The notes under the pieces are model-generated. The model had not been told where the DNA came from. It saw only the letters and a list, made by a program, of their open reading frames with translations, and searched no databases. Source: Thermoanaerobaculia bacterium (GTDB lineage: Bacteria > Acidobacteriota > Thermoanaerobaculia > Multivoradales > JBCCEF01). From it: 64,000 bases of DNA. The position numbers were made by a program, and so were the translations under genes. Location: contig DATACC010000228.1 in the NCBI GenBank assembly GCA_036259255.1, forward strand, positions 592-64,591, written 5' to 3'. Below are positions 16,199 through 18,460 of the stretch, one piece after another. Each line of letters begins with the position of its first letter. Position 1 is the first letter of the stretch.

Positions 16199-18460
16199 TT
16201 GTCCGACGTACATTCGCTGCTATCTTCGCTGCTCGATGAGCGAGGATTGAAGAAGGCGCTAGAAATTATTGAGAATTTAGAGGACGCGCACGGCTTTGGC
16301 TGGCGTGCTGTTGGTGGGCGAGAGAATAACTATGGCACTATCAACATTGGCAGTGACCCCGGCCTAGCGCTGGTGGAGCGGGTAACAAACGCAATTGATG
16401 CTGTTATCGAACGCGAAGCACTGAGGAGTGGGGGGGCAATCTCTACGCCCGCGAACCCTCGGGAGGCGGCAGAAAAATGGTTCGATATTCCTGCCGGGCA
16501 TGTTAAAAATCTACAAATCGGCGCACGGCAGAATCTCGCGGATCAAGTGCGGATAATTTTGAGCGATGGTAATCGGGTCCGCCAGCCTACAGTCGAGATC
16601 CGGGACCTCGGCATAGGGCTGGAACCTGCTCAGATCCCAGTGACGATCCTGGGCTTAAACGAGGGTAACAAGGTTGATAAACCGTACCTAGCGGGCGCCT
16701 ACGGTCAAGGAGGGTCGACTGCACTCGCATTCTCGCCAGAAGGCACCTTAATTGTTTCTCGGCGACAGCCCTTCATCCCTGATGCAGCGGCAGTGATAGC
16801 GGTTACGTTTGCCAGGTACAATGAGTTGGACCCCCGTAAAAACAAAAATGGGCGTTATGAATATCTGGTTACCCCGAGTCGCGAGGTGCCGTCGGTCCCT
16901 ATCGGCGCCGCCCCTGGCTTCGATCCGGGCACGGCTGTGGTGCACTTCAATCTTCAGGTTGAACAATATGCGGCCAGGATGACGCAGTTAACGGGAAGCT
17001 TTTGGTGGCTTCTTCAGAATGCACTTTTTGATCCGGTGCTGCCGTTCTGGGTAGAGGAACGTCGCAAGCGGTATGTTCAGCAAAAAGGAGAGGCAGATCG
17101 CCGCACAATCGCCGGCAACCACACGCGTCTCTCAGAGGATGCGAAGGACAAAGTTGAACACGCCGATACGGTCGACGTTAGGGTTCATGATAGCCGAGGC
17201 GATTTTGTTGTGCGTGTTCATTATTGGGTGCTCAGAGAGCCTGAGGATCAAAAGCGTTCGCGGCCGATTGACGCTTATGTCGATCCGTATCAACCCGTCG
17301 CATACACCTACTTTGGTCAGACTCATGGGACCGATGATCACCGTTTTACAACGGAACGCCTGGGGTTGCCGTATCTCGCCAAGTATTTAATACTGCAAGT
17401 TGAGTTGGATCGGATTTCCCCCTTTGCTCGGCGAGAGTTGCTTTCGACTACTAGAGATCGACTGAAGCAGTCGTCCGCTCATACAGAGATGCGAGAGCAG
17501 CTGTCGGCAGCCTTGGGTGAGGATGAGGATTTAGTTAGGCTCAACAATGACCGGAAGGAGAGCATTCTCTCGCGGTTCTCCGAGAGCGAGCGACAGAAGA
17601 TGCGAGAGCGCTTTGCCAAGCTGATGGAGCGTCATCTCGCTGGTACCGACGCTCAGGTCCCTGGAAAAGGGGACGAACGCGGGGGGCGGCCTCCAAAGCC
17701 TCAAACGCCAAGCGGCCCTCCTGCCCCTCTTCCAACTTCGGATGAACCGACGTTTTTGCGCATTTCGAATGCCCAGGTCCCGATACCAGTCAGAATCGAT
17801 CGTTCAGCTTTAATTCGGCTGGAAAGTGACGCGCCTGACGGTTACTTGACCGCACATCCCCACGCTCATTTGGTAATGACTACCGAACCTGAAAGCCAGC
17901 TAAAACAAGCGAGTCGCTCTGATTTTCGCGGCGGGCGTTCGCGACTTGTGGTGAGGCCGCCGACCGAAGCTAGAGTTGGGGAGTCGGGTTCACTAACTGT
18001 CATCCTCTTTAGTCCTTCGGGGCAGCAGTTTACTGCCCGCTCAAGATACAAGGTGGTGCAGCCTCAGGATCATGAAACCGCCGGTGACTCGCGGAAGGCA
18101 CAAGTGAAGGCTCCTGAGCCGGTCCCAATTAGGAAAGACCAATGGAATGCGCTCGGATGGAATGAGGCTAGCGTTGCAGAGGTACGCCAAGACTCGAGTG
18201 GGGCTCGCATCTTGGTGAATATGGACAATAGACACCTTAGGCGATTGTTGGAGGCCGGTGGCTATAAGGAGGTTGGCCACAGGCGAATGGAAAACAGTTT
18301 TCTGATGTATGTAGCCTTTTTTGCGTGGCTGCGCCATTCAAGACCCGGAACGATTGAACTAGCGGGCCAGGCATTTGAGGAGTACACTGAAACTGAACTT
18401 GATCGCGCCGCTCAGACTGTGGTGCACAGCATTAGTGCAGCAGGTCGACTGGAAGATTAG
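16199..18460 (+). CDS. GHKL (Bergerat-fold) ATPase, MORC/paraMORC-like, with about 500-aa C-terminal region of unknown function; candidate defence/restriction component
   Basis: N-box ERVTNAIDA, G1 box IRDLGIGL (DxGxG), G2 box GAYGQGGSTALAFS; TTG start with GGGAGG RBS; gene is in a low-GC segment. Confidence 0.75.
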   Translation: MSDVHSLLSSLLDERGLKKALEIIENLEDAHGFGWRAVGGRENNYGTINIGSDPGLALVERVTNAIDAVIEREALRSGGAISTPANPREAAEKWFDIPAGHVKNLQIGARQNLADQVRIILSDGNRVRQPTVEIRDLGIGLEPAQIPVTILGLNEGNKVDKPYLAGAYGQGGSTALAFSPEGTLIVSRRQPFIPDAAAVIAVTFARYNELDPRKNKNGRYEYLVTPSREVPSVPIGAAPGFDPGTAVVHFNLQVEQYAARMTQLTGSFWWLLQNALFDPVLPFWVEERRKRYVQQKGEADRRTIAGNHTRLSEDAKDKVEHADTVDVRVHDSRGDFVVRVHYWVLREPEDQKRSRPIDAYVDPYQPVAYTYFGQTHGTDDHRFTTERLGLPYLAKYLILQVELDRISPFARRELLSTTRDRLKQSSAHTEMREQLSAALGEDEDLVRLNNDRKESILSRFSESERQKMRERFAKLMERHLAGTDAQVPGKGDERGGRPPKPQTPSGPPAPLPTSDEPTFLRISNAQVPIPVRIDRSALIRLESDAPDGYLTAHPHAHLVMTTEPESQLKQASRSDFRGGRSRLVVRPPTEARVGESGSLTVILFSPSGQQFTARSRYKVVQPQDHETAGDSRKAQVKAPEPVPIRKDQWNALGWNEASVAEVRQDSSGARILVNMDNRHLRRLLEAGGYKEVGHRRMENSFLMYVAFFAWLRHSRPGTIELAGQAFEEYTETELDRAAQTVVHSISAAGRLED

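Follow-up and report, generated by a model that had tools for sequence, protein, structure and literature searches.

Five subfamilies of Type II restriction endonucleases (REases) in REBASE carry an N-terminal GHKL domain, with some of their C-termini unassigned, and the GHKL-type REases named are R.HgiDII, R.NmeAIP, R.EcoUTORF4938P, R.LweSORF291P, and R.VeiORF1182P (Orlowski and Bujnicki, 2008; PMC2441816). MORC and paraMORC proteins with GHKL and S5 domains have been described in restriction-modification (R-M) operons, a minority being paired only with methylases (Iyer, Abhiman, and Aravind, 2008; PMC2292703), and the defense protein VcSduA is a GHKL ATPase fused to a DUF4263 PD-(D/E)xK nuclease that needs both activities for defense (PMC12137116). 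The present analysis concerned a 64,000-nucleotide (nt) stretch from a Thermoanaerobaculia bacterium of the Acidobacteriota (GenBank assembly GCA_036259255.1, contig DATACC010000228.1, positions 592 to 64,591 of the forward strand; hereafter the window) and within it an open reading frame (ORF) at 16199-18460 (+) that codes for 753 amino acids (aa) from a TTG start in the ORF list of the window. On balance, the encoded protein, termed the target, is taken to be the "R" subunit, an ATP-dependent effector, of a two-gene mobile cassette of the R-M type. This assignment is supported by its conserved ATPase and transducer, the linkage to a methyltransferase gene, the foreign origin of the cassette, the existence of relatives linked to DNA modification, decayed copies, and literature precedent. 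The concept is already known, and the target family is a widespread, unannotated variant of GHKL restriction proteins that were described in 2008 (R.HgiDII and the paraMORCs).

Three independent lines, i.e., motif conservation, fold matches of a predicted structure, and profile matches of a diverse sequence set, identify the target as an intact GHKL ATPase, to which an S5-type transducer is joined. The motifs ERVTNAIDA (residues 60-68), IRDLGIGL (134-141), and GAYGQGGSTALAFS (166-179) fall within a Bergerat-fold ATP-binding domain at residues 34-282 (16298-17044, +), which was delimited from motifs, Foldseek, conservation, and profile evidence, and all three were invariant or near-invariant in 40 close homologs. 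Superfamily conservation was counted over 116 sequences at no more than 50% identity. In this set, motif I (ExxxNxxD; E60-R-V-T-N64-A-I-D67) retained E60 in 98%, N64 in 97%, and D67 in 95% of members; motif II retained D136, G138, and G140 in 100% each; the lid (motif III) retained K158, G166, and G171 in 100%, with G166, G169, G171, and G172 ranging from 92 to 100%; and the motif IV residues G244 and T245 were conserved in 95 and 87%, respectively. The ATP-site residues, with E60 as the catalytic Glu and N64 as the Mg-binding Asn, and the transducer residues Q374 and R419 were intact in every locus examined.

The AlphaFold2 (AF2) model of the target, built on the family alignment, had a predicted local distance difference test (pLDDT) score of 81.9 and a predicted template modeling (pTM) score of 0.81. 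Foldseek aligned it at 7e-10 to 1e-7 with GyrB 43K, ParE, SMCHD1, Hsp90 N+M, and Topo VI-B, over 370-470 columns of the GHKL plus transducer modules. A profile of the diverse set reached Topo VI-B (E = 0.009), MutL (0.11), and Grp94/Hsp90 via the G1-G2 region, and 18 of its 20 matches were GHKL proteins. The target itself matched no model of Pfam (at E ≤ 1), NCBIfam, PADLOC, or PHROGs (cut-offs E ≤ 1 or 0.1) and gave no Pfam HATPase_c or HATPase_c_3 match above the gathering score; some relatives scored 14-23 bits against HATPase_c_3, under the 25-bit cut-off. Searches of the PDB with the single sequence and with the close-family profile returned only a chance WD40-like match and a sub-threshold match to the Hsp82 G1 box. 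In the viral structure library BFVD, the matches were phage topoisomerase II subunits, rIIA-like proteins, and Hsp90-like proteins; the phage rIIA-like proteins, annotated "membrane integrity protector," were among the best matches there to the GHKL-transducer module.

The S5-type transducer (middle) domain occupies residues 283-425 (17045-17473, +), as delimited by Foldseek alignments and conservation. This beta-rich domain holds G373-Q374 and R419, of which R419 was invariant and Q374 was kept in 99% of the 116 members, and by analogy R419 would contact or sense the gamma-phosphate. A transducer-only profile gave chance matches against the PDB and found no relative there. The ATPase domain is preceded by two N-terminal helices in the AF2 secondary structure (residues 1-33; 16199-16297, +), a possible dimerization strap by analogy with the N-terminal arms of GyrB and MutL, and the transducer is followed by a three-helix segment recognized in the same model (residues 426-480; 17474-17638, +).

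The partner gene at 18464-19567 (+) codes for a 367-aa DNA methyltransferase of the N6/N4 type and starts 3 nt past the target stop codon, such that the window shows one element of R-M gene content, an adjacent and co-oriented methyltransferase gene separated by a 3-nt gap. The product has motif I DPFCGGGTT and motif IV TSPPY, the latter presumably favoring N4-methylcytosine (m4C), and it matched Pfam N6_N4_Mtase (7.5e-15), PADLOC MTase_II over its full length (5.8e-30), beta-class and N4-cytosine methyltransferases in the PDB, and DNA methyltransferase in PHROGs. Neighborhoods were counted over 67 non-redundant loci, and 38 of them had a related methyltransferase gene directly adjoining the family gene in the same orientation. 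In 18 loci, those of closer relatives (identity of 30% or more), it lay downstream, and in 19, those of more distant ones, upstream. The methyltransferase linkage of the target family is strong. An uncultured Gemmatimonadales metagenome-assembled genome (MAG) has a single 1,179-aa ORF (L030:6753-10289) in which an N6_N4 methyltransferase (residues 147-399) is fused to the GHKL protein, and this fusion suggests a physical interaction of methyltransferase and ATPase. When all neighboring ORFs were clustered, two methyltransferase groups were the only conserved neighbors; no stand-alone nuclease, helicase, MORC, or HNH gene was conserved among the clustered ORFs, and the cassette is a strict two-gene module.

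The cassette was acquired horizontally, as its guanine-plus-cytosine (GC) content of about 55% departs from the approximately 74% of the surroundings and its distribution across phyla is patchy. Composition profiles placed the low-GC island at 16173-19600 (approximately 3.4 kb), and it contains exactly two co-oriented ORFs, the target and the methyltransferase gene. A word-indexed search for the target gave 274 matches, and a profile search gave 2,065 cluster representatives at 50% identity, with 763 of them below 1e-30; family members are annotated at most as "hypothetical" or "ATP-binding protein." Among species-representative genomes, the family occurred in the bacterial groups Acidobacteriota, Myxococcota, Nitrospira, Burkholderiales, Eremiobacterota, Chloroflexota, Bacillota, and Planctomycetota and in the archaeal Thaumarchaeota and Methanocella, and no homolog was found in phage genomes. 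In five loci (L013, L012, L026, L037, and L045) the cassette has decayed, its GHKL ORF being split or truncated or its methyltransferase split. The truncated gene of L045 lies between duplicated ORFs that are inverted relative to each other, which suggests that insertion sequences were active there.

Distant relatives of 805-806 aa were found on a Devosia plasmid (NZ_CP104964; locus L070, 1-13350) and an Ensifer plasmid (NZ_CP101520; L071), in both cases adjoining SspABCD-type phosphorothioation genes. As these relatives adjoin such genes, the superfamily pairs with at least two types of DNA modification. The two plasmid loci also carry an HATPase_c_3+HEF_HK+HATPase_c protein matching PADLOC REase_II and an ORF of 634-679 aa that had no matches, and they may represent a phosphorothioate-linked restriction module other than SspE or SspFGH.

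The C-terminal part of the target is more divergent. A disordered Pro/Gly-rich linker at residues 481-519 (17639-17755, +), seen in the sequence and as pLDDT below 50 for residues 481-505, leads to a basic Ig-like beta-sandwich at residues 520-622 (17756-18064, +; isoelectric point, pI, 10.7), which was recognized from a C-terminal model, Foldseek, its duplication in relatives, and its charge. A short linker (residues 623-639) connects it to an end domain at residues 640-753 (18116-18457, +) that, in the C-terminal model, begins with a small beta-alpha-beta-beta unit and continues into three long helices, forming a putative dimerization or partner-binding domain. Residues 505-753 modeled alone reached a pLDDT of 92.6, and Foldseek against the PDB matched the Ig-like domains of NCAM, DLAR, Rib, RAGE, and cadherin at 4e-5 to 1e-3 over the sandwich only, with no PDB match for the end domain. 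Longer family members (830-916 aa) were considered as carriers of a swapped-in effector, which was rejected, as their C-terminal domain is the same and their extra length comes from an Ig-like domain duplicated in tandem ahead of it. Two Ig-like copies were identified in P0134, P0147, P0150, P0157, P0158, P0168, P0202, P0205, P0207, P0215, P0219, P0220, P0247, and P0250.

An earlier sequence-only reading of the window had assigned the N-box, G1, and G2 motifs to a GHKL ATPase, and this assignment held at residues 60-68, 134-141, and 166-179. Its remark that the remainder lacks a PD-(D/E)xK, HNH, or phospholipase D (PLD) signature was likewise borne out by regular-expression scans, Pfam, PADLOC, and Foldseek of residues 505-753, and a classical DNA-binding motif was not detected either. 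The extent of its uncharacterized C-terminal region (500-550 aa) had to be reduced, as residues from about 200 to 480 complete the GHKL domain and add the S5-type transducer and three helices, and residues 520-622 are Ig-like, leaving only about 115 aa (640-753) plus linkers that have no fold assignment. A new effector domain, as it proposed, may or may not be present: the C-terminal module folds confidently but comprises a generic Ig-like sandwich and a helical end domain, and its polar residues are not conserved superfamily-wide. The structure comparison that it recommended recovered the S5-type fold and no nuclease fold. The partnership of the GHKL ATPase with a methyltransferase in a defense-like cassette agreed with the 38 of 67 loci described above, and the co-occurrence analysis with defense islands, also recommended there, returned a strong methyltransferase linkage, with classical defense islands being sporadic only.

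No known REase fold (PD-(D/E)xK, HNH, GIY-YIG, PLD, or half-pipe) was found in the target, and regular-expression scans for PD-(D/E)xK, HKD, GIY-YIG, HNH, and MutL DQHA motifs were negative. Polar residues conserved in the close family comprise E542, D544, D547, H553, H555, D575, R580, and R582 of the Ig-like domain and N674, D676, N677, and H679 of the end domain. Superfamily-wide, the Ig-like region keeps only P517, D/N544, A545, and G579 and the end domain keeps only E733 and R736. A catalytic centre in the C-terminal module is argued against because a shared centre should persist across the superfamily; the module also changes faster than the ATPase and, judged from these conservation patterns, would be a better fit to a recognition or dimerization module than to a universal catalytic domain. 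The sole cluster conserved superfamily-wide outside the ATP pocket lies in the transducer, [QH]400-V-[DE]402-x-D404 and R419-[ED]420. It was tried as a nuclease site and, by its position in the fold and a presumed likeness to the catalytic loop of the Hsp90 middle domain, judged more likely to be an ATPase catalytic loop. An HNH-type beta-beta-alpha-metal site at VNMDNRH (673-679) was rejected as no general-base His ends the first strand and as D676, N677, and H679 are not conserved outside the close family, and a Toprim-like reading of LESDAPDG (541-548) was rejected as the domain is an all-beta Ig-like sandwich. A third conserved gene as the source of a nuclease was also sought, and none was found on clustering the neighboring ORFs.

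Among the described systems, R.HgiDII resembles the target in that its R gene adjoins a methyltransferase gene, its GHKL domain is N-terminal, and its C-terminal part has no assigned nuclease fold (PMC2441816). It differs in its partner, a C5-cytosine methylase vs. the N6/N4 type for the target. Neither the target nor 59 diverse relatives matched any PADLOC model, including the REase_II models, and in this respect they are distinct from the REBASE GHKL-type REases, with the R.HgiDII C-terminus compared by description only; two GHKL-type models of PADLOC, PDLC03419 and PDLC03485, are nevertheless able to pick up another GHKL protein.

The target family has in common with MORC and paraMORC1-5 a GHKL plus S5 module whose ATP motifs are intact, a C-terminal extension peculiar to each family, links to methylases, and a sporadic, laterally mobile distribution. 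The MORC S5 signature GhXhhpXXRhl was found by regular expression in neither the target nor the 116 family members. The ExxxH motif of paraMORC2 was not present in residues 283-430 of the target by the same approach. Unlike paraMORC3/Shedu type I-D, the target has no DUF4263 restriction-endonuclease (RE) fold (E-D-ExK) according to Pfam, PADLOC, and regular expression, its C-terminus being Ig-like only, and unlike paraMORC4 it has no TIR domain according to Pfam, a TIR neighbor being present in one locus only (L005). For paraMORC5, a unique C-terminal domain rich in highly conserved polar residues such as HxH has been described, with which H553-P-H555 may be compared; about 30 of 39 close homologs retain it, but only 19 of 116 members across the superfamily. 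For paraMORC1, with its C-terminal extension and co-occurrence with MORC and HNH, the comparison was likewise by description, and no MORC or HNH gene was a conserved neighbor of the target family. The family further differs from the MORC and paraMORC proteins in that Pfam HATPase_c_3 misses it and that it has no helicase or stand-alone nuclease partner. By these described features, the target family would be set apart from MORC and paraMORC2-4.

Topo VI-B was the best sequence-profile match and among the top fold matches, and the chain from Methanosarcina mazei gave the longest Foldseek alignment (756 columns). This M. mazei protein also ends in an Ig-like domain. The order of GHKL domain, transducer, and helices is shared with Topo VI-B and the 43-kDa module of GyrB/ParE, whereas the target has no Toprim domain, no A subunit (GyrA or Top6A/Spo11) encoded nearby, and no assigned H2TH insert, and its context is a methyltransferase cassette vs. 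the topoisomerase operon of Topo VI-B. VcSduA is similar in that it serves defense and its effector is controlled by a GHKL ATPase module, and different in having a recognizable nuclease and in being a single gene with no methyltransferase. MutL with MutH or Vsr provides a GHKL-S5 ATPase coupling the methylation state of DNA to strand cleavage (PMC2292703). It relies, however, on separate nucleases or on a C-terminal DQHA(X)2E(X)4E domain, neither of which was found for the target, and the target gave no DQH motif by regular expression and no NCBIfam or Pfam match.

In the mechanism proposed for the cassette, the GHKL-S5 protein would dimerize through its ATP-bound N-terminal gate, as judged from GyrB, MutL, Hsp90, Topo VI-B, and MORC, and the dimer would clamp DNA under nucleotide control. 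Host sites would be marked (m4C or N6-methyladenine, m6A) and protected by the methyltransferase, which probably associates with the ATPase and cooperates in recognition, with the fusion in one relative as a hint. The Ig-like and C-terminal module may contact DNA, the methyltransferase, or both. ATP-driven closure on unmethylated DNA would then lead to damage, which is the weakest link of the proposal. The damage step is most likely DNA cleavage by a site beyond present fold libraries, as has already been suspected for R.HgiDII, which poses the same puzzle, and no candidate cleavage site was located in the target.

Several observations weigh against an effector role. Neither cassette gene yielded a nuclease fold or motif with Pfam, NCBIfam, PADLOC, PHROGs, Foldseek, or regular expression, and conservation of the acidic and His residues in the C-terminal module stops at the close family, which one would not expect if a catalytic site were shared. 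Approximately 18 of the 67 loci have no adjacent methyltransferase gene, which is awkward if the protein is toxic to unmethylated DNA. A clade of Eremiobacterota with about 40% identity (L017-L020, L029, and L039; Eremiobacterota/Vulcanimicrobiota MAGs) is in this position yet keeps all ATPase residues, so that either its methylase is unlinked or these copies work differently. Neighboring defense genes are only sporadic: L001 has GmrSD and HicB, L005 has TIR and CHAT, L067 has AIPR, and L003 has another GHKL cluster.

Four other explanations were weighed. Eukaryotic MORC entraps DNA, and a MORC-type clamp of this sort could trap or compact unmethylated DNA and block replication or transcription, a non-nucleolytic restriction with a BREX-like outcome that is regarded as unlikely, although the pattern of conservation gives it some weight. 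It would account for the conservation of ATPase and transducer residues alone across the superfamily with no catalytic constellation elsewhere, for the absence of a third conserved gene, and for an Ig-like domain that is basic and sometimes duplicated, as a DNA-contacting or spacer module. We know of no bacterial GHKL protein that restricts DNA without a nuclease, however, none of the 116 members has the S5 signature of MORC, and a lethal activity more easily explains the stable upkeep of a minimal mobile cassette. A DNA-looping role has been proposed for MORC/paraMORC in R-M systems (PMC2292703), whereas the validated example VcSduA needs its nuclease (PMC12137116). The tight linkage and the single fusion demonstrate functional coupling rather than antagonism and would also suit an accessory factor of the methyltransferase outside defense, remodeling DNA for methylation or serving epigenetic regulation, as would the lack of a nuclease and the weak embedding in defense islands. 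Type II-like N6/N4 methyltransferases nevertheless work without ATPase partners, the foreign composition, patchy spread, and decayed copies are typical of selfish R-M cassettes, and the phosphorothioation-paired relatives fit an effector that reads modifications better than a methylation helper, making an accessory role improbable.

The sequence-only reading had also suggested a sensor that recruits host nucleases, and such a MutL-like matchmaker would sense unmethylated sites and recruit or activate a host nuclease or helicase whose gene lies outside the cassette. MutL does activate the separate nucleases MutH and Vsr (PMC2292703), the cassette contains no detected nuclease, and some members have no adjacent methyltransferase. 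Dependence on the nuclease of one host is unlikely because the cassette crosses very different bacterial and archaeal phyla with no obvious common partner and with no conserved third gene; moreover, the methyltransferase is the only conserved neighbor and other R-M-linked GHKL families carry the nuclease in the same operon or polypeptide, so that the suggestion is disfavored and its probability is judged to be slight. A housekeeping paralogue, i.e., a topoisomerase B subunit, MutL, or Hsp90-type chaperone, would agree with the best fold and profile matches (GyrB, Topo VI-B, Hsp90, and MutL) but is effectively refuted by the absence of a Toprim domain, an A-subunit neighbor, and a MutL C-terminal endonuclease or dimerization domain, together with the low-GC island, the sporadic distribution, and the lack of an NCBIfam equivalog match. 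A housekeeping fold with homologs outside defense contexts was what the sequence-only reading had named as counterevidence to a defense function, and the strong methyltransferase linkage and the island of foreign composition point the other way.

To our knowledge, R-M-linked GHKL ATPases have been known since 2008, with only nuclease-bearing versions (Shedu/paraMORC3) tested. What cuts in GHKL restriction enzymes such as R.HgiDII is a standing question, for which the cassette offers a clean minimal case: it has two genes and a very confident model, and its family, with more than 2,000 clusters at 50% identity, lacks any database annotation. Restriction of DNA by the cassette, if it occurs, would rely on a new nuclease architecture or on an ATP-driven clamp that defends without cleavage, and either outcome, if true, would add a type of system missed by current defense-finding tools and bear on the origin of eukaryotic MORC-type silencing ATPases from bacterial conflict systems. 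A clamp, if true, would make the family a pared-down prokaryotic equivalent of eukaryotic MORC/SMCHD1-type silencing and perhaps its forerunner in function. That the family holds either a methylation-sensitive GHKL clamp restricting without cutting or a DNA-cleaving site of a new kind on an Ig-like/helical scaffold is rated as doubtful.

Regarding the locus itself, the island lies between a carB-like gene that ends at 16172, as read from its translation, and a 169-aa minus-strand ORF (19607-20116) that is unrelated to the cassette. The TTG start of the target lines up with the N-termini of homologs in the alignment and is preceded by a Shine-Dalgarno sequence, AGGGAGG (16185-16191, +), read directly from the sequence 7 nt 5' of the start; an identical protein is recorded as a hypothetical protein in a Thermoanaerobaculia MAG. 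The target gene begins 26 nt past the carB stop codon and no promoter for the island was predicted in 16173-16198, so the cassette may be transcribed by read-through from carB. No convincing insertion signature and no clear target-site duplication were seen at the island edges. Just outside its two ends, at 16019-16162 and 19657-19879, are direct repeats, three in number and collinear, that are short and imperfect (20 nt at 90%, 34 nt at 71%, and 16 nt at 88%) and may be chance matches in GC-rich coding sequence.

A further observation was made directly downstream of a homologous cassette (L003/L004:11701-15114), where a three-gene cluster consists of a Pfam-detectable HATPase_c_3 protein between two ORFs that had no matches. 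The region is prophage-like and includes genes for a DUF5906 primase, HNH, and HTH proteins.

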